A stretch of DNA of 64,000 bases from an uncultured Spirochaetota bacterium (GTDB lineage: Bacteria > Spirochaetota > Brevinematia > Brevinematales > JAOACQ01): contig CAWIGG010000006.1 of the NCBI GenBank assembly GCA_963835575.1, forward strand, positions 128,001 to 192,000, written 5' to 3'. The notes under the pieces are model-generated. The model did not search any database. It saw only the letters and a list, made by a program, of their open reading frames with translations, and was not told the origin of the DNA. The translations under genes were made by a program, and so were the position numbers. Of this stretch, positions 13,611 through 64,000 are shown one piece after another; the stretch's first letter is position 1, and each line of letters begins with the position of its first letter.

Positions 13611-13624
13611 TTTCTCAATATTGG

Positions 13625-13640
13625 GTTTTTCTACAGATTC
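13625..13640. mobile_element. Isolated IS1182-type terminal inverted repeat abutting an attC R'' box
   Basis: GTTTTTCTACAGATTC|GTT resembles CTTTTTCTACAAACAC|GTT (38835-38853) and CTTTTTCGACAGGGTC|GTT (42612-42630). Confidence 0.6.
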
Positions 13641-13662
13641 GTTGAGCGAAGTTGTTGGCCAT
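13641..13662 (-). other. attC R'' remnant closing the methyltransferase cassette
   Basis: Minus strand ATGGCCAACAACTTCGCTCAAC directly after the stop codon; complementary to the cassette start GTTAGCTGAAATTGTTGGCGAT. Confidence 0.7.
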
Positions 13663-14448
13663 CTATACTTGAGCTTCTACTTCCAATCTTTTCATTTTAA
13701 CATGACAAATATTATTTTTATCTAAAGGATATTTTTGAATATAATCTTCAGCAATTTCATTAATTAAAATATTCTTCTCATTTTCTTGGACTCTTTGGAT
13801 ATAAGACGAAAATGCTGTTCTAATCCAGTCAAATAATCCTTCTTTTCCAATTTGCGTCATATCTTTATCTATTAACTCGACTCTTTTAGCTTTTAAGCCA
13901 GCTTCTAATATCCAGTTCATATATTCATCTTTATCAAAATACCAAAATAGATTTGTAAAATCTTTAAAATAACTTTTCCATTTCTCCTTTTTAATAATAT
14001 TTTCTACTATTGCAATTAAATCTTCTTGATTTCCTTTTCCACCCATCTGTAAAAAAACTTTTCCATCTGGTTTTAAAGCTTTTTTTATTTTTTTTAAAAC
14101 AGTTAACTGATCATTTATCCAATGAAGTGTTGCTGTCGAAAAAATAATATTAAATTCTTTTTCAAAATTAATATTCCTTGCATCTATAAATAGAAAATCA
14201 ATATTTTTATAATTTGATTTATTATATTTATTTTTTGAATAATTTATCATTTCTAATGAAGCATCTATTCCTAATATAAAACCTTGGGGAATTAATTTTG
14301 ATATTTCAGCAGTAATTATTCCATCACCACAACCAATATCTAATATTTTTTCAGTTCCTTTTAATGATAGTTTAGATATTAATTCAAAAGCCCAATATTT
14401 TTGTTGAGATGAACTTTTATTATAATCTTCAGGATTCCACTTAATCAT
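13663..14448 (-). CDS. Class I SAM-dependent methyltransferase (trans-aconitate MT-like), integron cassette
   Basis: WNPEDY, ILDIGCGDG, IFSTATLHW; very AT-rich and bounded by attC boxes. Confidence 0.88.
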   Translation of the reverse strand: MIKWNPEDYNKSSSQQKYWAFELISKLSLKGTEKILDIGCGDGIITAEISKLIPQGFILGIDASLEMINYSKNKYNKSNYKNIDFLFIDARNINFEKEFNIIFSTATLHWINDQLTVLKKIKKALKPDGKVFLQMGGKGNQEDLIAIVENIIKKEKWKSYFKDFTNLFWYFDKDEYMNWILEAGLKAKRVELIDKDMTQIGKEGLFDWIRTAFSSYIQRVQENEKNILINEIAEDYIQKYPLDKNNICHVKMKRLEVEAQV

Positions 14449-14478: not shown

Positions 14479-14641
14479 AGCTAACGGTGCGGCTTGGCGA
14501 CGTTTTGCGGTCCGAAGGACTGGCGCGACTTTTGCGTCCCACGCAGCAAAAGTCGTGACAGAGCCAAATGTGTCCGCAGGACCGAGGACCGCCCGGAGAC
14601 CGCAGTCGAGGACGGACCGGAGCGCTAAGCCGTCGTTGTGC
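14479..14641 (-). other. Integron attC site (163 bp, intact)
   Basis: Minus strand R'' GCACAAC ... R' GTTAGCT. GC-rich imperfect hairpin (CGGCTTAGCG/CGCCAAGCCG outer stem; CGACTTTTGC/GCAAAAGTCG inner stem) between two AT-rich same-strand ORFs. Confidence 0.88.
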
Positions 14642-15116: not shown

Positions 15117-15152
15117 ATATCAAAACCTCCAACTAAAATTAATGCCAACTTC

Positions 15153-15186
15153 GCACAGACGGTGCGGCTATACGACGTGGCGGTGG
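15153..15186 (-). other. Collapsed (internally deleted) attC site
   Basis: Retains CGTCGTATAGCCGCACCGT, identical to the 3' half of the attC at 40851-40905, but lacks R''/L''. Confidence 0.7.
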
Positions 15187-19871: not shown

Positions 19872-21516
19872 CCCGCATTATTCATCTCACCCCCACAGAG
19901 GGTGTATTTTCTATAAAAAACTGCCCGGCTGTTCAAGCGGCCGCATAAATTTGTCAGTTAACCTTCCGTTTTTCCGTCCAATCCTTTCTAACTTTTCAAA
20001 AATCTGTTTTTTGCAGTTACAAGGGCGCAGTTTCCCCCTTCTTTAAGCGGAGTCAAAAACATCCAGAAAGGCTTTCATTACGCAAAGCTGTCCGAGAGCC
20101 TTTGAAATACCGCTTTTTCAGTGAAACTTGAGCAAAAATGCAGCCATACTCTCCGGACTGTTTCTTTTACCTGTACAGCAACTTTCAGAATTTTTAACCG
20201 TATAGTGTCGGCTTGCGCTTTCTCATATTCTGTACCTTTCAATCCCTTCCTTAAGCGCTGCATGCATTGATAGGCAAAACCCGCAAGAATCAGCCGGAAA
20301 TAATTTGCCATATATCGATGGCAGCTCAAACGGTCAAGATTCATATCCTTTTTCAGTTCCTTGATCCGGTTTTCCATATCTCCACGCTTCGCATAGAATC
20401 TGTATGCATACCTTGCCTTTGAAAATTTCCAATTGGTTATCAGATAACGGGTGTCCTGTCCCAATTCATTGCAGCGTATCCGGGCGATAATCATTCGTTC
20501 TTTTTCCCAGCTTTGTGCACGGTATTTGAAATTCGTATGAAGCGTCTTTTCTTTCCCGCTTTTTTGAAAATATGTCTTTGCCCTGCGGGATAGCTTTCTT
20601 GTCCTCTTCTCCAATCTCCGGTAACCCTTTATTCCCAGAATATAATGGAGATCATTTTGTTCGCAATATTCGTATATCTTCGGGTTTTCAAATCCGGCGT
20701 CACCTCGCAGGATTATCCGGATCTCCGGTTGTCGCCTCCTTATTGCCAAAACAATTCTCCTGATCATAGCAAGCGCGTCCTTTGCCGGACCCGCGTTTCC
20801 CTGCCGCAGTTTAATCGCCGCAAGGTCTCCGGTATCTCCGTCACAAACAATCAGCGGTGAGTACATCGTTTGTTCATAAAAACCGTTGAACAGGCTTCCT
20901 TCCTGTTTACCATGCGTCGGATCATCCGTGCCGTCTATGTCAAGAACAACACTTTCCGCTTTACGCTCTATCAAGCTGTCAATGTACCAGTCCGTCATAC
21001 AGAAATCAAGCTTCGTTATATCCCGAAGGTTTATGCTGTTCTCAAGCCTGGACAGCGTCGGCTGGCTGGACAGGGTATCTCCGCTTTCAGGTAAACGCCC
21101 TGCCGCGAATTTAAACATCGGGTCATACCGTAATACTCCCGCGTCGTTGGTGTCTTCATACCCCATGATCATTTGGCTGACCCGTTGTCCGATCAATTCA
21201 CTCATTTCATGAATTATCCGGTCCTGGTCCCTGCAATCCTCAATACAACCGGATATTCTATTGATAATTCCGGTCTTTTTTAAGAGCCCGGATACCAGAA
21301 ACAGCCCGCCGTCAGTGGATATGTCGCCGCCGTTCCAGTCCATCTCAATAGTCTTGCCTAAAAAGGCAAAACCGCTTGATTTTTCTTCTTGTTTATGACA
21401 TACTGTTTTCACCGCGTATCTCCTCTTTGGGGTATTTTTAGGTCGCAATTAATTATATCATAAAGAGTAAAGTTACGCGGCTTTTTTTATACTTTTTTTC
21501 AGGTGAATAATCCGGG
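19872..21516 (-). mobile_element. IS1380-family insertion sequence, complete
   Basis: Terminal IRs CCCGCATTATTCA / TGAATAATCCGGG; 4-bp duplication CTAT at 19868-19871 and 21517-21520. Confidence 0.92.
20078..21412 (-). CDS. IS1380-family transposase
   Basis: GGDISTDGG, SQPTLSRLEN, LDIDGTDDPTHG, LRGDAGF, RGDMENRIKE; GTG start after GAGGAG. Confidence 0.93.
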   Translation of the reverse strand: MKTVCHKQEEKSSGFAFLGKTIEMDWNGGDISTDGGLFLVSGLLKKTGIINRISGCIEDCRDQDRIIHEMSELIGQRVSQMIMGYEDTNDAGVLRYDPMFKFAAGRLPESGDTLSSQPTLSRLENSINLRDITKLDFCMTDWYIDSLIERKAESVVLDIDGTDDPTHGKQEGSLFNGFYEQTMYSPLIVCDGDTGDLAAIKLRQGNAGPAKDALAMIRRIVLAIRRRQPEIRIILRGDAGFENPKIYEYCEQNDLHYILGIKGYRRLEKRTRKLSRRAKTYFQKSGKEKTLHTNFKYRAQSWEKERMIIARIRCNELGQDTRYLITNWKFSKARYAYRFYAKRGDMENRIKELKKDMNLDRLSCHRYMANYFRLILAGFAYQCMQRLRKGLKGTEYEKAQADTIRLKILKVAVQVKETVRRVWLHFCSSFTEKAVFQRLSDSFA

Positions 21517-24873: not shown

Positions 24874-25014
24874 ATGGGGATTAAGGCTTTATCCGATTCT
24901 GCCGCGGATGACGGTTTCTCTCCGGCAGGCTTTTCCTCCTATTTTCATGAGAAATGCGATAAACCTGCCGTTGCCTTTGGGGCGAACGGCAGGTGTTTTT
25001 TTCTCCTCTCCTTG
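24874..25014 (+). pseudogene. 5' gene fragment cut by the IS at 25015
   Basis: ATG after a purine-rich RBS-like tract; the reading frame runs into the IS end. Confidence 0.35.
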
Positions 25015-26689
25015 TTGCCTGTCGGTTTTTATAACATGCTTCATGGACATACGGCAGGGTTCCCGTTAAAATAAAACGGGAGAAAAAGATGGCAAGATTT
25101 GAAAAGAACAGCCTGGAGCAGGGTGAGTTCCTCGCGATCAATATAGGCGAGCAGTTTGATGAGAATTCCAGAGAATTTATACTAAAAGAATTCATCAAAA
25201 ACCGTATTAAACTGGAGGATTTCGCGGCTTACTATAAGAACAACCATAGAGGCAGAGAGATTAAAAATCCTCGGGATGTGATCTGTGCGGTACTCTACGG
25301 TTACATTACGGGAAATCGTATCAGCCGAAAGATAGAAGATTTGCTGAAAAAACACATTGGGTTTATGTATGTTTCAAACCGGCTGAAAATTGACCATTCG
25401 GTAATTTGCGAGTTCAAGGTACTTTTTCAGGAAAAGATCGAGGAGTTGTTCAGCCAGCTTTTATATATACTCAACGAAATGGGGTCTATAGATTGGGACA
25501 TGGTAGTGGGTGACGGCACAAAGATCAAGGCCTACGCGAGTAAGAATAAGAATGTGGGAAAGAAACATACCCGGAAGCTGATGGACACTTACCAGAAGAT
25601 GGCGGAAAAGATTGTGAAACAAGACCTGGAACTGGAAGAATCTTACCGGGAAGGCAAGCTGGAGCAGCCTTATTACGAAGCGGAGAAGAAGCGGGTATCA
25701 AGGCGGAAAAAGATTTACGATAGTGTTTTGAACCAAATCGATGAATACAAAAAACAGGTAGAGAGAGGGGAAAAGACAGACGAAGAATTCACCAACCTGA
25801 CTGATCCCGAAAGCAAGCTGATGTCTGGAAATCCGCATAGTGTGTTTATACAGGGATATAATTCGGCGATGATGGTCAGTAATAATGATGTGATTATAGA
25901 TTTTGAAGCAATCACAACACCGGAAAAACAGCATACGGAAGAAATGGTAAAGAGGGTGGAACAGAAAAAAGCGGAATTAAAAGTTGATAAGGCTAGCAAA
26001 TACCTTTTTGATTCGGGTTTTCAGGACATGGAAGAGACAATCCGGATGGTGGAGGAAGGAAAAGACCTTTATGTGGATACGAAAGAGCGGGATTTCAGTG
26101 ATAAATCACAGAAGCGAAGAGACTTTAAACTGGAAAAGATTGATGACGAATATATCCTGGGATGCCGGGGCGGCCGTAAGGAAAATGGGTATTTAGATCG
26201 AAATAACCAAAGATATACATTTTTGTATTCACGGAAGGGCTGTGAAAGATGTCCATTTTTCAGTGAGTGTTATAAAAACATCAAACCGAAAACACAGCAA
26301 AAGACAGTAATTTTCAGTGAGTTTGAATTGAATAATCGGTCTAAGATTGATGCTTATTTAACAAAACTTTACAGCGAAGAAGGGCAAAAGATATACAACC
26401 GCAGGATAGGTAAAGAACACGTATTTTCAAACATCAAAACACAGAAGGGTTATGTTCAGACAGTTTACAGAGGTCAACGGAAAGTGAATTTGGAGCTATG
26501 CTGGGTATCCCTTGCGCATAATTTTATGAAATATGCCCAATATTTGAGAAAATAGAGAGGATTTTGTATAGTCTGAGTATCGATTATTCGAAATTTATTA
26601 TTAAAATCAGCTAAGCTGACAAAATTTTTATTTGCCCGCTTATTGTAAGGGGCTGGTTTGACTCCGAAAATGAAATAACCGACAGGCAA
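25015..26689 (+). mobile_element. IS1182-family insertion sequence
   Basis: IRs TTGCCTGTCGGTT / AACCGACAGGCAA; no target duplication visible. Confidence 0.78.
25089..26555 (+). CDS. IS1182-family transposase
   Basis: SRKIE, IDHSVICEF, GDGTKIKAYAS, NLTDPESKLM, QGYN, FDSGF, EHVFSNIK, LAHNFMK. Confidence 0.9.
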   Translation: MARFEKNSLEQGEFLAINIGEQFDENSREFILKEFIKNRIKLEDFAAYYKNNHRGREIKNPRDVICAVLYGYITGNRISRKIEDLLKKHIGFMYVSNRLKIDHSVICEFKVLFQEKIEELFSQLLYILNEMGSIDWDMVVGDGTKIKAYASKNKNVGKKHTRKLMDTYQKMAEKIVKQDLELEESYREGKLEQPYYEAEKKRVSRRKKIYDSVLNQIDEYKKQVERGEKTDEEFTNLTDPESKLMSGNPHSVFIQGYNSAMMVSNNDVIIDFEAITTPEKQHTEEMVKRVEQKKAELKVDKASKYLFDSGFQDMEETIRMVEEGKDLYVDTKERDFSDKSQKRRDFKLEKIDDEYILGCRGGRKENGYLDRNNQRYTFLYSRKGCERCPFFSECYKNIKPKTQQKTVIFSEFELNNRSKIDAYLTKLYSEEGQKIYNRRIGKEHVFSNIKTQKGYVQTVYRGQRKVNLELCWVSLAHNFMKYAQYLRK

Positions 26690-27001
26690 GCCGGAAAAAA
26701 GAGGCTGTATTATAAAGATCCTGATAGACCAGAAGATAATTATGCCGGTCAGAAGCGCCTTCCCGATCTGAGAGGTTAAAAGCTCTTTTGAGTAAAAGAA
26801 AGGTAAATAGGCGAAGATCAGCCAGAATAATAAAACGGAGAAGTTTGACGTATTTAATAACTGCTTTATGACTCTTTTTTTGATGGCTGGCAGTTCTTTC
26901 AGATTTTCATCCCAATTGAACGTTTTTGGGAATATAATATGGGATAGAGCGCAGATCAAATGAAAAACGCCCCCGATTTTTATTAATAGTTCATTGGGCA
27001 T
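26690..27001 (-). pseudogene. Membrane protein, 3'-truncated by the IS
   Basis: Hydrophobic helices (HIIFPKTFNW, FWSIRIFIIQ); the frame continues into IS sequence after ...QPLFSG. Confidence 0.55.
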
Positions 27002-38045: not shown

Positions 38046-38850
38046 AAAAAGGACAATACACGATCGACGATTTTTATTATAATTCCGAAAGCGATGTTTA
38101 TATATGTAAAAATAATGAAGAACTGAGGTTTCGGTATAACTACAAAATGAAAAACATAACTTACGCGAAATATATATGCCGGTATTCGGTATGCCGTAAT
38201 TGCCCGTACCGCGGAGATTGCCTGAAAAACGATAAAACAAAATACAGGACGCTGCAGAAACCGCTGAATGCCGACAACCGTCATTACTCGGACGAGATGA
38301 AGAAATTTATAGATACCCCGGAGGGCATAAAACTTTACGGGCGAAGGATGGCGATAGTTGAGCCGGTGTTCGGTAATATCCGGTCATGCAAAGGCTTGAA
38401 CAGATTTACACTGAGAGGCAAAGAGAAATGCAATATACAATGGGTGTTATATAAGGGCAGTTCCAAAAACTAAAAAATTTATCAGATATTTCCACAACAG
38501 GTTTTGGAACTGCCCCGGTTAAAAAATTCCCTGTAAATGCAAATGGCGCTACCGTATAGAGTTCGCTGGTCGGCTTTCTTTTAAGACAGCGAACTCGAGC
38601 GGTAGCATGAATTCATACAATAGTGGCAGTTCTAAATATTTGAGTTTTTAGAACTGCCCATAATATTGTGCATAATATGGGAAAAATTCATGTGTTTGGA
38701 GGGATATGATGCCGTAAAGCAGCCGTAGCGTCGGAATTGTCGGCTGAATGAGGCTGATTCAATCAAAATAGATACGGTTTGACCGGAAAATATTTTCCCG
38801 ATTGAACAACAGGGGAATCAACATTTGAAAATGACTTTTTCTACAAACAC
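38046..38850 (+). mobile_element. 3' remnant of an IS1182-family element, interrupted by a MITE
   Basis: YGRRMAIVEPVFGNIRSCKGLNRFTLRG...QWVLY|NIVHNMGKI rejoins across the MITE; right end CTTTTTCTACAAACAC. Confidence 0.85.
38455..38659 (+). mobile_element. 205-bp triple-hairpin MITE, copy 2 (diverged)
   Basis: Same TIRs; ATAA duplicated (38451-38454, 38660-38663); removing it restores the transposase frame. Confidence 0.9.
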
Positions 38851-38873
38851 GTTAAATGCAGTTGACCCCGCCT

Positions 38874-39221
38874 TTAATTGATTAATAAATTAATTTTTTC
38901 AATAACTTCTTCAAATAAATCATCAGATGCTTTAGTAATAAATTTAGCTTCCCTTGAAATCCAGTCTAAACTTTTGATTTGATCTGATAAGATTACACCA
39001 TCAATTTTACCTTTTATATTTATTCTAACTTCAAATGGATAATCTTTTATCTTTGATGTGATTGGGCAGAATAAAGCTAGTCCAACTTTTTCATTGTATT
39101 CTTTTGGAGATATTACAATGGCTGGTCTATGACCCGATTGTTCATGTCCACTTTGAGGGGTAAATAATAACCAAACGATATCACCCCTTGATGGTATATA
39201 ACTACCAGGCTTCTTTTCCAA
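38874..39221 (-). CDS. mazF: MazF/PemK endoribonuclease toxin, integron cassette
   Basis: YIPSRGDIVW, GHEQSGHRPAIVISP, CPITS, DQIKSLDW; TTG start after AGGAG. Confidence 0.93.
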   Translation of the reverse strand: MEKKPGSYIPSRGDIVWLLFTPQSGHEQSGHRPAIVISPKEYNEKVGLALFCPITSKIKDYPFEVRINIKGKIDGVILSDQIKSLDWISREAKFITKASDDLFEEVIEKINLLIN

Positions 39222-39441
39222 TTTGATCTCCTGTATTAACTTCATCATGAATATTAGTATCATTAATTTTGGATAATATCTCCTTTAGTTTTAGACTATG
39301 CTTCTTTGGAATAATAATGATTTTATTATCCTCTTTGATTAAATCGACATGAGATCCTTTTTTAAGATTAATATCTTTTGCATAATTAATAGGAATTCTT
39401 AAAGCTAAACTATTTCCCCATTTTTGAATAGAAACTTCCAT
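39202..39441 (-). CDS. mazE: MazE/AbrB-type antitoxin
   Basis: IQKWGNSLALRIP; C-terminal GKEAW overlaps the toxin gene. Confidence 0.93.
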   Translation of the reverse strand: MEVSIQKWGNSLALRIPINYAKDINLKKGSHVDLIKEDNKIIIIPKKHSLKLKEILSKINDTNIHDEVNTGDQIGKEAW

Positions 39442-39451
39442 AAAAACCTCC

Positions 39452-39494
39452 ATGTATCTACATAGAGTATACATTATTTGTTAATCAAAGTCAA
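39452..39494 (-). promoter_or_regulatory. mazEF promoter with palindromic operator
   Basis: TTGACT-N17-TATACT; ATGTAT-N11-ATACAT inverted repeat over the -10. Confidence 0.75.
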
Positions 39495-39503
39495 TACAAG
39501 CGG

Positions 39504-40838
39504 TCCGACTTCAAGACATAGGTTACACTTTAGCTTCAGGACATCGGTAACCCTTTTTGAGTACAAAATGCCCTTGAATTACTATTTCAGTATAGACCTA
39601 AATATAAAAGTATTCAAGTCCATACTACCTATCAGATTATTTTCAAACCACACATCCATAAAAGCTTTGCTTTTACTTTTTAAACCAATATGATAACCAT
39701 CCAACGCATTTGTAATAAATACACGCCGACCTTTATAATAAATGTAACCTCTGTTATTAACCTTTCTGCTGATGTATCCCTTGGGATATACAACCCAATC
39801 GGCTATCCCATCATAACTCCTAACCGATTTTATATAGACCATTGCTGGTGTTTTCATTCCAAGGCTTTCATGCGGTCTTTCCTCGTTGAACTCTTTTCTC
39901 CATTCGTTGAATACTGCCTGGTGCAGCTTCAGGCTACCGCTGATTTTGTTTTCCAGTTCCTTTTTCATATCCAGGTGCATCCTTTCATGTGCTCCGTTCT
40001 GATAGGGAGAGCCGGGATCAATTCTGTCCAGCTTTATGCCCAGAGACAACCACCATGCTGATAGTCTGGTTAAACCAAGTAAACCCTGTGTACTGGCAAA
40101 CGGCGGCCCATTATCGGATTTTATCATACTCGGTAATCCATATTGCTTGAAGAGTCTGTCAAATTCAAATTTGACGGAACTAATATCACCTTTTTGCAGT
40201 ATGGCTATGGATAAAATATATTTGGAATAATCATCACGTACTGTAAGTGGTTCGCATCTTTCCTGCTCGGAGGTATACCACCAGCCTTTGAAATCCACTG
40301 TCCAGATATCATTTGGTTTTTTCGGTGCTACCCTGTTCTGTATTCTTTCCGGATGTATGTGTCGTCTTCTTTTCCTTAATTCTACAAATCCGGCCTTTTT
40401 CAATATCCTTTCGACAGTGCTTAATGAAGGAATTTTATTATCCGGGTGGTTCCTGACATAAACCGACCTGATTTTCTTAGGTCCCCAATTCTGCTTCGTT
40501 TGCTTGATACGGATGATCTCGCAGATTATTTCTTCAGAAAGTTGATTAGGGCTTGAAAGCGGTTTCCTAGATTTTTCTTGAAGACCGGACAACCCTTCTT
40601 CATAAAACCTTTCTTTCCACTTATAACCGGTTTTTGTGCTGATCCCATATTCAGTACAAAGCTCGGTAAAGTTCACACCTTTTTGGAATGACTTTTCAAT
40701 AAAAGCTAATTTCAGCTTCATGATATTAACCTCCTTCCAGGGCATTGTCAGCCTCCTTAATGAGATCTGACCTAATTATACCTGGAAAGTGTTACCTATG
40801 TCCTGAAGCTTTTCCGTTACCTATGTCCTGATTTCACA
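39504..40838 (-). mobile_element. IS481-family insertion sequence inside the mazEF cassette leader
   Basis: Ends carry tandem TCAGGACATAGGTAAC-type repeats; one end is TGT, the other reads TCC; AGCGG duplicated (39499-39503, 40839-40843). Confidence 0.85.
39582..40745 (-). CDS. IS481-family transposase
   Basis: MPWKEV, ISTKTGYKW, WGPKKI, WTVDFKG, SDNGPPF, QNGAHERMH, NEERPHESL. Confidence 0.93.
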   Translation of the reverse strand: MPWKEVNIMKLKLAFIEKSFQKGVNFTELCTEYGISTKTGYKWKERFYEEGLSGLQEKSRKPLSSPNQLSEEIICEIIRIKQTKQNWGPKKIRSVYVRNHPDNKIPSLSTVERILKKAGFVELRKRRRHIHPERIQNRVAPKKPNDIWTVDFKGWWYTSEQERCEPLTVRDDYSKYILSIAILQKGDISSVKFEFDRLFKQYGLPSMIKSDNGPPFASTQGLLGLTRLSAWWLSLGIKLDRIDPGSPYQNGAHERMHLDMKKELENKISGSLKLHQAVFNEWRKEFNEERPHESLGMKTPAMVYIKSVRSYDGIADWVVYPKGYISRKVNNRGYIYYKGRRVFITNALDGYHIGLKSKSKAFMDVWFENNLIGSMDLNTFIFRSILK

Positions 40839-40850
40839 AGCGGCAATTGC

Positions 40851-40905
40851 ATTTAACGGTGCGGCTATACGACGTTTTGCGGCCCGCAGCGTTTTAGCCG
40901 CTGTT
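40851..40905 (-). other. attC site (59 bp when rejoined to R'' at 42628-42634), split by IS1182
   Basis: Rejoined minus strand GTCTAAC-AGCGGCTAAAACGCTGCGGGCCGCAAAACGTCGTATAGCCGCACC-GTTAAAT; stem GCGGCTA/TAGCCGC. Confidence 0.85.
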
Positions 40906-42627
40906 GAGTCTGTCGAAAAAGTGATATTTAATGTAAATTATTATCGATATAGCTTAAAATAATGAATGAAATAAATCAATAGCGGAAGGTTATATGGCAA
41001 GATACAAGACAGTTAATTATGAGCAGATGGAAATGATACCGCTCAATTTTTCAGATCAGCTGATCGAAGGAACATATGAACACACACTCAATTTCCTAAT
41101 CGAGGAAAAGGCTGACCTTTCCTGTTTTGATATAAATTATAAAAATGATAAAACAGGCTCGAAAGCGATTTCTCCGGCAATTCTTCTGAAAATAATCCTT
41201 TTTGCCTATTCGAAAGGTATTACTACATCACGCAGGATTGAGGAAGCTTGCCGGGTGAATGTCATCTTCAAAGCCCTGTCCGGGAATACCGTTCCAGACC
41301 ATTCCACTATAGCCGCTTTTGTTACCGGTATGAAAGACCGGATTAAAATAGTATTTCAGTTTGTGCTGATGGTCTGTTCTTCTGCGGGATTGATCGGCGG
41401 GGACATGTTCGCCGTTGACGGCTGTAAATTGCCTTCAAACGCTTCTAAAGAATGGAGCGGTACATTCAAAGACCTGAAAAAGAAACAGGAAAAGTTTGAA
41501 AAGCTGGCGGCATTTCTACTGGAAAAACACGCGCAAGCTGACTGCTCCGGCGAAAATGAAAAGTCTAAAGCGCTTCAAAAAAGATCGGAAAAAATACGGA
41601 AGAAAGCGGAGAAAATCGATGCCTTTCTCAAATCCCAGAATCCCAAATACGGCAAGCGGGGACGTGAAAACCAATCGAATATTACCGATAACGAAAGCGC
41701 GAAAATCAAGAGTTCCCACGGTGTGATACAAGGTTATAATGGACTTGCGGTAGTGGATTCAAAGCATCAGGTGATTACCGCGGCGGAAGCTTTTGGTTTA
41801 GGCCAGGAAGGGGAAGTATTGAAGCCGATGGTTGAAATAACGGAGGAAAATTTAAGCGTGATAAAAGGAGAAACAAATCCGCTGGAAGGAAAAACAATAC
41901 TGGGGGACACGAATTATTTCAGCGAAGAAAATCTAAAATATCTGGCGGAAGAAAAGAAGATGGAAGCTGTGATACCGGACAATCAATTTCGAGGGAGGGA
42001 TGAACGGTTTACCGATCGGGGAAGGTTCAAGCCGAAACCGATGAAATACCGGGAACACGATTTTGAAAAAAATGAAGCTGATAATACTTATATATGCCCG
42101 AATGGAAAAATATTAAGCTATAAGGGATACCAGAGGCAATTGAGTAATTTCGGCCATAAATATCAGGCCAGGCAGGCGGATTGTTCAAAATGCGGGAAAA
42201 GGGGACAATGCTTAAAACATCCCGATAAGACAAGGCAAAGAACATTATATCTGGTGGACAAAAGAGGGGATAAAAACTATTCAAAAGAAATGGTAAATAA
42301 AATTGATCTGCCGGAAATCAGGGATTTGTACAGCCGGAGGATGGGAATAATTGAGCCGGTATTCGGTAACATCCGTTCTTGTAAAGGTATGGACCGTTTT
42401 ACGCTCAGGGGTAAGAGTAAGGTTAATATCCAGTGGCTTTTGTTCTGTATAGTGCATAATATTGGTAAAATCCAGATATTTGGTAAGATTTAAGGGGGTG
42501 TTCATAGCCATAATACCGGCTTGAAATTGGAAAAATGGAAAATCCGGATAGAGAAATGAAAAATGATACTCTATCCGGCTTTCAGAAGACAGTTTTTATT
42601 CTCGTTTTTGGCTTTTTCGACAGGGTC
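40906..42627 (+). mobile_element. IS1182-family insertion sequence, complete, inserted in attC
   Basis: IRs GAGTCTGTCGAAAAAG / CTTTTTCGACAGGGTC; GTT duplicated at 40903-40905 and 42628-42630. Confidence 0.92.
40994..42493 (+). CDS. IS1182-family transposase
   Basis: LLKIILFAYS, SRRIE, PDHSTIAAF, VDGCKLPSNAS, NITDNES, QGYN, GDTNY, IEPVFGNI, VHNIGK. Confidence 0.94.
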   Translation: MARYKTVNYEQMEMIPLNFSDQLIEGTYEHTLNFLIEEKADLSCFDINYKNDKTGSKAISPAILLKIILFAYSKGITTSRRIEEACRVNVIFKALSGNTVPDHSTIAAFVTGMKDRIKIVFQFVLMVCSSAGLIGGDMFAVDGCKLPSNASKEWSGTFKDLKKKQEKFEKLAAFLLEKHAQADCSGENEKSKALQKRSEKIRKKAEKIDAFLKSQNPKYGKRGRENQSNITDNESAKIKSSHGVIQGYNGLAVVDSKHQVITAAEAFGLGQEGEVLKPMVEITEENLSVIKGETNPLEGKTILGDTNYFSEENLKYLAEEKKMEAVIPDNQFRGRDERFTDRGRFKPKPMKYREHDFEKNEADNTYICPNGKILSYKGYQRQLSNFGHKYQARQADCSKCGKRGQCLKHPDKTRQRTLYLVDKRGDKNYSKEMVNKIDLPEIRDLYSRRMGIIEPVFGNIRSCKGMDRFTLRGKSKVNIQWLLFCIVHNIGKIQIFGKI

Positions 42628-42686
42628 GTTAGACGCCGTTTGCACTTACCATGGAGTTATATGTCCGCCCATTTTTCGTAAACTTT

Positions 42687-43493
42687 CTACTCGATGCGGT
42701 AGGGTGTACCTCGTAAGAAGGATTTGACGACAACCGCAAAGCGCCCGGGCTGGTCATAGTGGACCCCATGGCCAGCTTCCCGGATTTGTTCAACCTGAAA
42801 TCTCGGATTAAGACGTTGCAGCTCTTCGGCAACAACAGACGAAACCACACCTTTATTACCAAATACGAGCAGGCTTGGAACATTAATCGCACTCACCAAT
42901 TGCTTATAATCAGGGATTGGTGGCGTGAGAACGTCGAAAGATGCCATACTGGTTTGAAGTCGTGCCTGGGCGATTAGCTCGAGTGTATCCGATGACCGAT
43001 TTGGGTGTCTACTCTGCAAATCTGCCAACAACTCCTCTAATGATTTACCGAGATTTCGTCGATGCTGATCGGCCACATCGCTATCGCAAACTTCACGCTG
43101 AACTTTTGGACTCAAGAATGTTGGATCAGTTAAGATTAGGCCACAGAGTAGCTTTGGGCTACGACTTGCTACTACGGCTGCAGTCATACCTCCCATAGAA
43201 TGTCCGAGCAGAACCGGAGGTGGAAGTCTTAGAGCTTTTATAAGGCCGACGACATCGTTTGCATGGTCTTCGTATCGGTACCCATAGTCAGGCACACTCG
43301 ACTTTCCATGACCTCTAGCATCCGGCATGATTACGTCATATTCTCCCTCTAGAGCATGTGCCAAAGCAGTCCAGCAGGCTCCATTAGCAGTTAATCCGTG
43401 TAGCAAAATTAAAGGGGATTTGCTTCCTCCGGTTCTCATGTAGTGTATGTTAATTCCGTTTGTTTCGCAGATTGCTGTACTCCAGTCAGTCAT
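42687..43493 (-). CDS. Alpha/beta hydrolase, integron cassette
   Basis: LLHGLT, PDARGHGKS, GHSMGG, AGHGVH. Cassette ends GTTAGGCGCCATTTGCAC / GTGCAAACGGCGTCTAAC are complementary. Confidence 0.9.
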   Translation of the reverse strand: MTDWSTAICETNGINIHYMRTGGSKSPLILLHGLTANGACWTALAHALEGEYDVIMPDARGHGKSSVPDYGYRYEDHANDVVGLIKALRLPPPVLLGHSMGGMTAAVVASRSPKLLCGLILTDPTFLSPKVQREVCDSDVADQHRRNLGKSLEELLADLQSRHPNRSSDTLELIAQARLQTSMASFDVLTPPIPDYKQLVSAINVPSLLVFGNKGVVSSVVAEELQRLNPRFQVEQIREAGHGVHYDQPGRFAVVVKSFLRGTPYRIE

Positions 43494-43578
43494 TTTTGGT
43501 CCCCTTCGATCATAAGATTCATGGTTTAGTATGTAATTGATGTCAACGCGGCGGCCGAGACACAAGCGTGCAAATGGC

Positions 43579-43605
43579 GCCTAACTCTATATAACCGAAA
43601 TTAGT
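43579..43605 (-). other. Array entry point (R' GTTAGGC) with an attI-like, non-hairpin upstream half
   Basis: Minus strand CTAATTTCGGTTATATAGA-GTTAGGC; no attC hairpin and no intI upstream. Confidence 0.5.
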
Positions 43606-52918: not shown

Positions 52919-53970
52919 TTAATCTTCTTCCCTCATCAGGATGTCCTGCAGCATATCCTCGGTAATTGTCGTGAGGACTTCCCTGACCTGGACAGCCCTT
53001 TTCTTGCTGACAACACCGGGTTTGCCCTTGAATTTTACACTATCGCCGATAAGGACTTCCACATCCATCTTCGTCGAATCTTTCAGCCGTATAACATCGC
53101 CGGTATGTATGGCGGCGATCTCATTGAAATTCAATACCGTTTCGCTGAGCTTCACGATCACCTCAACCTGTACATCGGAAATCTGGTCCTTGATCAGGGA
53201 AAGATTTTCCGTTGTGATGCCTTTTCTGATGCTGGAATACCAGTATTGGGCCGACAGCTTGGAAATAATCGGTTCTATGGTGATGTAAGGGATACAAAAA
53301 TTCATCATACCTTCGACATCGCCGATCTTCGTGTCGAAAGTTGTCAGCACGACCATGCTGTTGGGCGGTACAATCCCGGCAAACTGCGGGTTGGTTTCGA
53401 TATTTCCCAGCCTGGGGCGCAGGTCAATCACATTGGCCCAGGATTCCCTGAGATTACCGAGAAGCCTGACGATAATTCCTTCTATAACTGAAAGTTCTAT
53501 ATCGGTCAATTCGCGGTTGGTTTTGAGGGATTCCCCCTTCCTCCGAACAGCCGGTCAATGATGGCAAAGGTAATACTGGGGTCCAGTTCCGCCACAGAGC
53601 TGCCCTTTAAAGGGTCCATGTTGATGATTCCCAGCGTTGTGGGCGAAGGAATGGAGCGGGTAAATTCCTCATACGTCAACTGGTCAACGGAAACGACATG
53701 CACATGCACGAGCGTCCGGAGCTGGGCTGAAAGCGAAGTTGTCGTCAAACGGGCAAAGGTTTCATGCATCATCTGCAGAGTTCGGATCTGGTCTTTTGAG
53801 AATTTGTCCGGACGGCGGAAATCATAGACTTTAAGCCTTTTCTTTTCCCTCTTTGGCCCGGACTGCGTAGTTCTTGCCGTGCCGTGCGAAGGCTCCGAGG
53901 GAATGCTCTCGCCGCTTGATACTGCTGTTAATAATGCATCTATTTCATCCTGGGACAGGATTTCTGTCAT
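52919..53970 (-). CDS. fliM: Flagellar motor switch protein FliM (one frameshift near 53535)
   Basis: ILSQDEIDALL, YDFRRPDKFSKDQIRTL, DQLTYEEF, DRLFGG | RELTDIE, IETNPQF, MMNFCIPY. Confidence 0.93.
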
Positions 53971-63387: not shown

Positions 63388-64000
63388 GTTGTCCCTGAAA
63401 AAGCCGATTTTCAGAGTAAACCATAGCACAAGCCAATAGCTTTGAAAGGAAAATTTACTTTGATAACGAAATTTATCCATTCAAAAACCGGGCGCAAGAA
63501 AGCCCGCAGGAGCTTTCTCAGATTAAAACCACAGCCGGAAAGAATTGCGTTGATACTGTCACCTTCTTCGCCTTTTAAGTAATTCCTGTCGAGCGAACAA
63601 TCGTTTTTCAAATGTCCAATGTCCGGTTCTATAGCGCTCCTTCGCTTCATCCATCGATGCAGCGCCGGATTTTTCTTTTTCATTCCGTGTTTTGAGACAA
63701 TGACTTGAATATCGCCTTGATAATCGTGTTCTTTATATCCACCGTCCGTCGCGGCCTGCTTGATTTTTACAAAATCCTTCGTCAGTCTTTCCGCCTGTTC
63801 CAGATTCGCCGACAGTGTGTGGCCGTCAAACGGGTTCCCGTGAAAAGCTTCTATCCCCAGTATGAAACCGGCTTTCGCTGAACTGACCACTCCCACTTTA
63901 CATCCGAATTCGTATTTCTTATGTGCCTTGCCTTTCGCTATACATTCCACTTCCGGCGCATGAATGCTGTAAATCTTGTTTTTATCCTGTCTTTTCTGAT
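63388..64000 (-). mobile_element. IS5-family insertion sequence, partial (runs off the window end)
   Basis: Terminal GTTGTCCCTGAAAAA; transposase 63411..>64000 with KIYSIHAPEVECIAKGKAHKKYEFG, DGGY, RRSAIEPDIGHLK. Confidence 0.9.

Follow-up and report, generated by a model that had tools for sequence, protein, structure and literature searches.

Insertion of an IS1182-family element at a fixed triplet of attC-like recombination sites

The 64,000-nucleotide stretch of spirochaete DNA analysed here, which we call the window and which corresponds to G000:C6:128001-192000, carries a complete IS1182-family element within an attC-like site of integron type, and the locus raises the question of what leads such an element to one particular triplet of that site. 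A sequence-only reading of the window had proposed that an IS1182 lineage inserts at AAC in the R'' box and that its transposase recognises the attC fold. We delimited the element and its relatives in this and other genomes and rejoined their flanks. The fixed position is supported in this genome and among the relatives, and recognition of the fold, as stated, is not.

The element and its host site

The element (40906..42627, plus strand) is 1722 bp long and has GTT on both sides, as had been noted before. Its left inverted repeat (40906..40921, plus) points toward the attC interior, with the first four bases rebuilding a minus-strand RYYY-AAC box, and its right inverted repeat (42612..42627, minus), which matches the left one at 14 of 16 positions, points toward the outer part of R''. 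The inner copy of the 3-bp GTT target duplication lies at 40903..40905; the outer copy (42628-42630) belongs to the outer R'' arm at 42628..42639 (minus), which bears the shared target motif described below. A single ORF between the terminal repeats, the architecture of the IS1182 family, encodes a transposase of 499 aa (40994..42493, plus, antisense to the cassettes) with the domains DUF772, DDE_Tnp_1 and DDE_Tnp_1_6, and the protein scores 277.4 bits with the IS1182 family model NF033551 (cut-off 270). Residues D142, D232, D305 and E454 are invariant among 73 transposase sequences and are candidates for the DDE triad. The genome contains six full copies of the element with 99.9-100% identity, which implies recent moves. 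A search by sequence for a solved IS1182 relative found none, and the predicted transposase structure (pLDDT 86.8) has the piggyBac and Tn5 transposases as its nearest solved folds, both weak matches (best E 3.3e-3, TM 0.30); piggyBac duplicates a fixed target. The transposase has a Cys-rich insertion domain at about residues 335-430, in which C368, C397, C400 and C406 are invariant; that this domain reads the target is a guess on our part.

With the element removed in silico, the flanks join into a 59-bp site whose bottom strand folds with the two triplets paired (-12.8 kcal/mol); a profile derived from 18 intact sites gives the R'' arm of this site a score of 21.6. The proposal that removal restores an attC thus stands as regards pairing and arm, while the length of 59 bp is probably that of a chimera of two longer local attC types: the 5' half is common to sites of 162 bp and the 3' end to another type, and the two meet at a 6-bp overlap. 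The interior and the R' box, with its crossover GTT at 40855-40857, occupy 40851..40905 (minus).

The surroundings are those of a cassette array. On one side lies a cassette gene for an alpha/beta-hydrolase (42687..43565, minus), whose cassette starts at the GTT at 43583-43585 without a preceding attC interior, resembling a secondary site. On the other side, an IS481-like element (39502..40838, minus, ends approximate) begins ~19 nt downstream of R', followed by a mazE/mazF-type cassette (38874..39474, minus), the ends of which are complementary (R' side 40851-40857, R'' side 38851-38857), and by a remnant of a related IS1182 element (38054..38850, plus) that is interrupted by a MITE and whose orphan right end abuts the GTT at 38851. 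This end adjoins a C-terminal transposase fragment of 49% identity. A further orphan right end (13611..13640, plus) abuts the GTT at 13641 and matches in 29 of 30 nt the right end of a 55%-identical sister element at C3:1652-1681; the methyltransferase cassette gene beside it (13663..14448, minus) ends 22 nt from the occupied R'' triplet, and an intact attC-like site of the same family, one of the 18 profile seed sites, spans 14483..14637 (minus) from triplet to triplet. The sequence-only reading was right that two further, nonidentical IS1182-type ends abut the same triplet in the same orientation: both belong to related elements, are right ends and share a strand, and in each case GTT comes next and after it the stop of a minus-strand gene. 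As they are orphans that have lost the left part and the attC interior, only the outer R'' half can be scored, giving 16.2 at 13640 and 11.7 at 38850. The flanks had been said to differ beyond the triplet, but they have an outer consensus in common.

The window holds some other features of note. The MITE in the remnant (38453-38665, ~210 bp) has long terminal inverted repeats and A+T-rich flanks, with 29 near-full matches in the genome. A copy of another IS1182 family, which has 22-23 copies in terminator-like palindromes, often with a 4-bp duplication, is found at 25014-26693 and not at attC. A DDE_Tnp_1_4 transposase lies at 20078-21448 and a further DDE fragment at 63411-63950; a truncated R' arm with an altered GTT is located at 15140-15180, between an Mrr gene and the next cassette. 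At 52919-53970, fliM is split into two adjacent ORFs (154 and 196 aa) by a frameshift or an assembly error. An Rfam search of the window gave no match.

The host sites are best called attC-like sites of a noncanonical integron. As in canonical integron attC, the AAC and GTT boundaries are paired at the foot of a bottom-strand hairpin, and the cassette boundary is the R' GTT, where duplicated cassettes end or begin. Canonical spacers of 5-6 nt and L boxes with an extrahelical base fell below the descriptor cut-off at L006, L017 and L022, the loci of this genome covered by the descriptor (with an intact interior in L006 only), and in all R''-type relatives. Large cassette arrays of the genome adjoin a tyrosine recombinase whose best solved relative is IntI4. 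In the one copy checked, 27 residues span 69 of IntI4, so that ~42 residues of the IntI insertion are missing, and TIGR02249 scores below its cut-off; the recombinase at the head of one array (L186:6688-7746 in G000:C2), which lacks the IntI insertion, is codirectional with the cassettes. The two cassette clusters of the window have bare GTT starts and are ~250 kb from the nearest such recombinase.

Target choice in this genome and among relatives

Ten two-ended elements of the genome were compared: the six full copies, an 80% hybrid, the 55% relative, a 109-bp MITE and a 325-bp deletion derivative, counting once a duplicate at the end of C2 and the start of C5 that is an assembly overlap. All ten are flanked by GTT on both sides. 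We scored the rejoined sites with arm profiles seeded from 18 hand-picked intact sites; in total, 32 intact paired sites of 130-215 bp were listed in the genome, some of them duplicated between contigs. On the R'' profile, seven of the ten sites scored 21-32, one 14.2 and two below zero, in comparison with 33 of 120,721 genomic AAC triplets scoring above 20, and none exceeded 11.5 on the R' profile. Duplicated cassettes tell the arms apart: between those at C2:2028745 and C2:46029, an identity of 100% covers the gene end and the site and reaches as far as the last base of the distal GTT, and in other duplicated pairs the identity starts at the distal GTT, which places the crossover there and the element at R''. 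As controls we took two further IS1182 families from the genome. They were absent from attC-like sites (0 of 23 matches and 0 of 14 strand-hits representing seven copies) and sit in palindromes.

Two full, identical and thus recent copies (C2:1831104 and C2:1628826) have no adjoining attC hairpin. The former has no attC arm on either side and the latter has an older IS right end on one side and the outer arm of a real R'' on the other; both lie next to small local stems. An IS-free allele of the window's own site was not found, the G276 homologue (91%) ending before the site. The contigs of four sequencing runs contained no joint skipping the window element, although contigs cannot show that such a joint is absent, and those of a run from another study held a slightly diverged copy in the same register with a different interior and a different cassette end.

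An alignment-based search of genome contigs gave 179 loci (L006-L184), including three copies from this genome and some duplicates. Placing paired inverted repeats from the repeat motif alone, we could delimit 145 of them, the remaining 34 being mostly at contig ends. A 3-bp duplication was present in 139 of the 145 and a longer one in none; the triplet was GTT in 126 cases, GCT in 5, CCA in 3, AAC in 3, GCA in 1 and TGC in 1, with 6 mismatched. Dropping duplicates and short flanks left 118 GTT sites, and of these 34 passed a strict canonical attC descriptor, 32 with the element at R' and 2 at R'', whereas 84 failed, in part because the descriptor has low sensitivity and passes none of the spirochaete-type sites. 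The enrichment for attC that the sequence-only reading had expected of rejoined homologs was thus found: only 16 of 2282 random GTT and 0 of 15 non-GTT sites passed. Some of the failures are genuine: in seven copies of one Nitrospirota genome and in L117 (L031-L036, L045, L117), the GTT target is the loop of short GC-rich palindromes that are not attC. Two loci (L127, L173) contain elements joined end to end via shared GTT triplets, one site having been used repeatedly. A recombinase was found within the DNA examined at 7 of 67 GTT/AAC loci with long flanks and at 0 of 7 others, a comparison that carries no information. A reading of L059 as an aadA cassette was dropped, as its upstream gene has no Pfam match.

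In a FastTree phylogeny of 138 proteins, the root of which is not reliable, the window element falls within a spirochaete group (support 0.996), a group at flipped AAC sites (L009, L010, L105) has a support of 0.992, and 12 taxa form a mostly non-GTT branch (support 1.0). We rejected the non-attC relatives as the ancestral state, as they are nested in a tree with an unreliable root. In the flipped group, one end points toward an R''-type interior (L010) and a left end toward the outer consensus already described (L280). Lineages differ in the arm they use: the canonical-attC relatives that could be assigned mostly use R', the spirochaete branch uses R'' and a third branch is flipped. The AAC of R'' is therefore the target in this spirochaete branch but not across the clade. 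Here the R' calls rest on the descriptor, and the R'' calls on the arm profile, the duplicated cassettes and a cassette block in G276. In G276 and G285, matches to the right-end pattern were followed by GT(T/A) and the outer R'' arm in 21 of 23 cases, and every one of these 21 has G at +5 and +8, while the remaining two appear to be chance matches. One occupied cassette has a 98.7% identical IS-free counterpart with a single triplet (L232 compared with L008), and in another cassette the same base was struck by different IS variants in two genomes. Several IS copies of G276 (L211, L212, L214) share an ~80-bp insertion that truncates the transposase at 405 aa.

Other elements converge on these sites. 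A second IS1182 lineage (488 aa, ~27% identical; C6:417250-421527, C3:5073-6751, C4:971940-973617, C5:2064-3742, L215:4129 and L219) makes a 4-bp duplication immediately inside the R'' triplet. Among its six two-ended copies, three are in clear sites, one in a degenerate site and two in non-attC positions with similar local sequence; a copy on C7 appears flipped, and like junctions are seen in G276 and G157. The IS481-like element starts 15-20 nt downstream of the R' GTT, at the 5' end of a cassette, in all five of its copies (window 39502-40838, C6:415751, C2:3613, C2:1248070 and C2:2040423), and a contig of sequencing run X1 has another junction of the same kind.

These patterns bear on two rival explanations. 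Arrays are dispensable DNA, with IS present in 23% of complete integrons according to the cited part of one survey (PMC4889954), and a transposase merely preferring GTT might leave copies that selection then removes everywhere else. We regard this as very unlikely, for arrays hold many other GTT triplets, including that of every R', yet one arm and one orientation are kept, and the identical copies imply recent moves. It is very unlikely indeed that the insertions are the work not of the transposase but of the host tyrosine recombinase, acting on an IS circle with a GTT whose integration at the attC triplet would mimic a GTT duplication. The duplicated triplet is the crossover triplet of the integrase, and the top-strand AAC of R'' is, in the passages cited, recombinable at lower efficiency (PMC5027507, PMC2727003). 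However, the 12-taxon branch of the same clade duplicates 3 bp of mostly other sequence (GCT, CCA, GCA, TGC), the crossover in this genome is at R', where no copy was found, and the second IS1182 lineage duplicates 4 bp beside the triplet.

Linear sequence and fold

What directs the transposase could be either the folded site or its sequence. The R''-type sites share T-GTT-RTRYGMHGT (13 sites). At -1 and +8, T and G are the bases of intact R'' arms, against C and A in the R' arms. We built a 17-bp profile from 10 sites of other genomes and applied it to this one. For 6 of 10 sites, three or fewer of the 120,724 genomic GTT scored as high, and the profile told the two arms apart, with scores of 10.0-23.5 for intact R'' arms (n=23) and of -5.9 to 11.6 for R' arms (n=29). 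Sequence thus suffices for the choice of the arm, but since the profile was trained on attC-derived sites, its ranking alone cannot split sequence from fold. More telling are the two hairpin-less copies, both of which are within the top 0.5% of genomic GTT on the profile. In addition, T at +9, outside the hairpin, was found in 25 of 34 occupied and 11 of 30 free arms (p=0.005), a post hoc comparison of one among four positions tested in related genomes. It is on these two observations that the proposed recognition of the attC fold is not supported as stated. A parallel favouring linear readout is offered by the second IS1182 lineage, in which 2 of 6 copies lie outside attC at similar local sequence. 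On the other hand, ~600 empty genomic sites score at least as high as the two hairpin-less copies and only 39 of them are in intact attC, yet most insertions are in attC; this excess could come from a bonus given by the fold or from selection against other insertions.

That the transposase recognises the folded attC, as a cruciform or as the foot of a single-strand hairpin, with sequence setting only the register and the arm, seems to us possible but rather unlikely. The family member IS1272 is described in the accounts cited as recognising stem-loops that have no sequence consensus (PMC5678879, PMC4923244), the other IS1182 families of this genome occupy palindromes, and the clade as a whole uses both hairpin feet, with one branch using short palindromes. 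The minimum free energy structure closed a hairpin at 56 of the 118 GTT/GTT sites with enough flank and at 57 of 340 random GTT, a test that its control shows to be crude and whose gene-based arm calls disagree at some loci (L020, L068, L175) with those of the descriptor or of sister copies. Recognition of the fold is at odds with the two full recent copies that have no attC interior beside them, one being flanked by an old IS right end and an outer R'' arm, with a preference that reaches +8/+9, past the stem, and with products that are clean 3-bp duplications and not stem-loop deletions.

We therefore lean toward a readout of linear DNA by the transposase, which appears somewhat probable from the comparison of insertion sites. 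Under this readout, an ordinary-looking IS1182 DDE transposase would cut double-stranded target with a 3-bp stagger around GTT, having acquired an asymmetric preference of ~15 bp (T-GTT-RNRYGMNG(T) in the bottom-strand reading) that fits the R'' arm, and not R', of the attC-like sites in its spirochaete hosts. The element inserts with its left end toward the hairpin interior, and the first bases of that end fit RYYY-AAC. Downstream, a full attC-like site is thereby formed again, and the IS would be a passenger at the upstream cassette's 3' end. Sister lineages would have shifted the same preference to R', to a flipped orientation, to short palindromes or away from GTT.

Cassette arrays and known attC-targeting systems

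The earlier observation that the downstream site keeps an R''-like box holds: the left end restores the RYYY-AAC box, and the folding energy of the regenerated site is close to that of the empty one (-12.2 versus -12.8 kcal/mol). The integrase, as far as the cited sections describe it, requires only paired triplets and structure (PMC2727003, PMC5027507), and the IS may thus travel inside a cassette; excision of cassette and IS together by the integrase is plausible. Indirect support comes from G276, where a block of 2638 bp with 99.85% identity between two arrays begins precisely at an R' GTT and continues through two cassettes into the IS at R''. The interiors past the IS differ between the two arrays and the IS copies are mosaics, which indicates that homologous recombination between copies is also involved. 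The non-attC branch has these ends as well. Their match to the R box may therefore have been a fortunate beginning and no adaptation, and an evolution of the IS ends toward mimicry of that box finds no support. Orphan right ends at R'' are more common than orphan left ends and are often located where arrays break off (L211, L212 and L214 of G276; window 13640 and 38850).

The closest functional parallel is the IS1111-attC group (ISKpn4, ISPst6), IS110/IS1111 elements with DEDD recombinases that, in the account cited, likewise use one defined position at one attC end (PMC11187229). Unlike these, the IS1182 element has a DDE transposase, terminal inverted repeats and a 3-bp duplication, with no DEDD recombinase or subterminal inverted repeats. 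Whereas IS1111-attC elements use a seekRNA, the noncoding ends of the IS1182 element (88 and 134 bp) show no guide-like match: in an exact-match test, none was found in 11 of 11 elements, the longest match to the target being 4-7 nt and within the range of shuffled sequences. Group IIC-attC introns (S.ma.I2) lie in attC opposite to cassette transcription in the description cited (PMC3001079), as do the elements of the R'' branch, but the IS1182 element is a DNA transposon in which no reverse transcriptase or ribozyme was detected and no outward promoter was found, a search of its left end for sigma-70-like outward promoters giving 0 sites. Within its own family, IS1272/TnSha1 also targets palindromic DNA and, as the cited portions of the reports have it, deletes the stem-loop without duplication or sequence consensus (PMC5678879, PMC4923244), while in the present lineage the site survives with a 3-bp duplication and follows a consensus. 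The element is thus an IS1182-family member that works like the IS1111-attC elements without belonging to that group. In the literature searched, we found no report of attC targeting by IS1182 elements; new here are the switch of arm and orientation, the evidence for a sequence readout and two more lineages converging on the same sites.

The target pattern is recurrent and highly nonrandom. It may be, and we say so tentatively, that IS1182 elements form a widespread, undescribed radiation of cassette-array parasites in which a protein-encoded preference was repeatedly retuned (toward R' or R'', into the flipped orientation, and by 4 bp inward in the second lineage) and whose ends rebuild a working recombination site so that cassettes carry them through integrase shuffling, with three unrelated IS lineages here having converged on one attC-like site of an insertion-less integrase. 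The described cases of attC targeting are an RNA-guided recombinase family and group II introns; here it is associated with a plain DDE transposase. By splitting attC sites, the elements may cause attC finders to miss them, and they reshape arrays by providing homology between them and by leaving orphan ends at the points where they break off. With their switches of arm or orientation, close relatives offer a natural series for finding how a DDE protein encodes a long asymmetric target, and the attC lineage of IS1182 could be a route to site-specific insertion tools.
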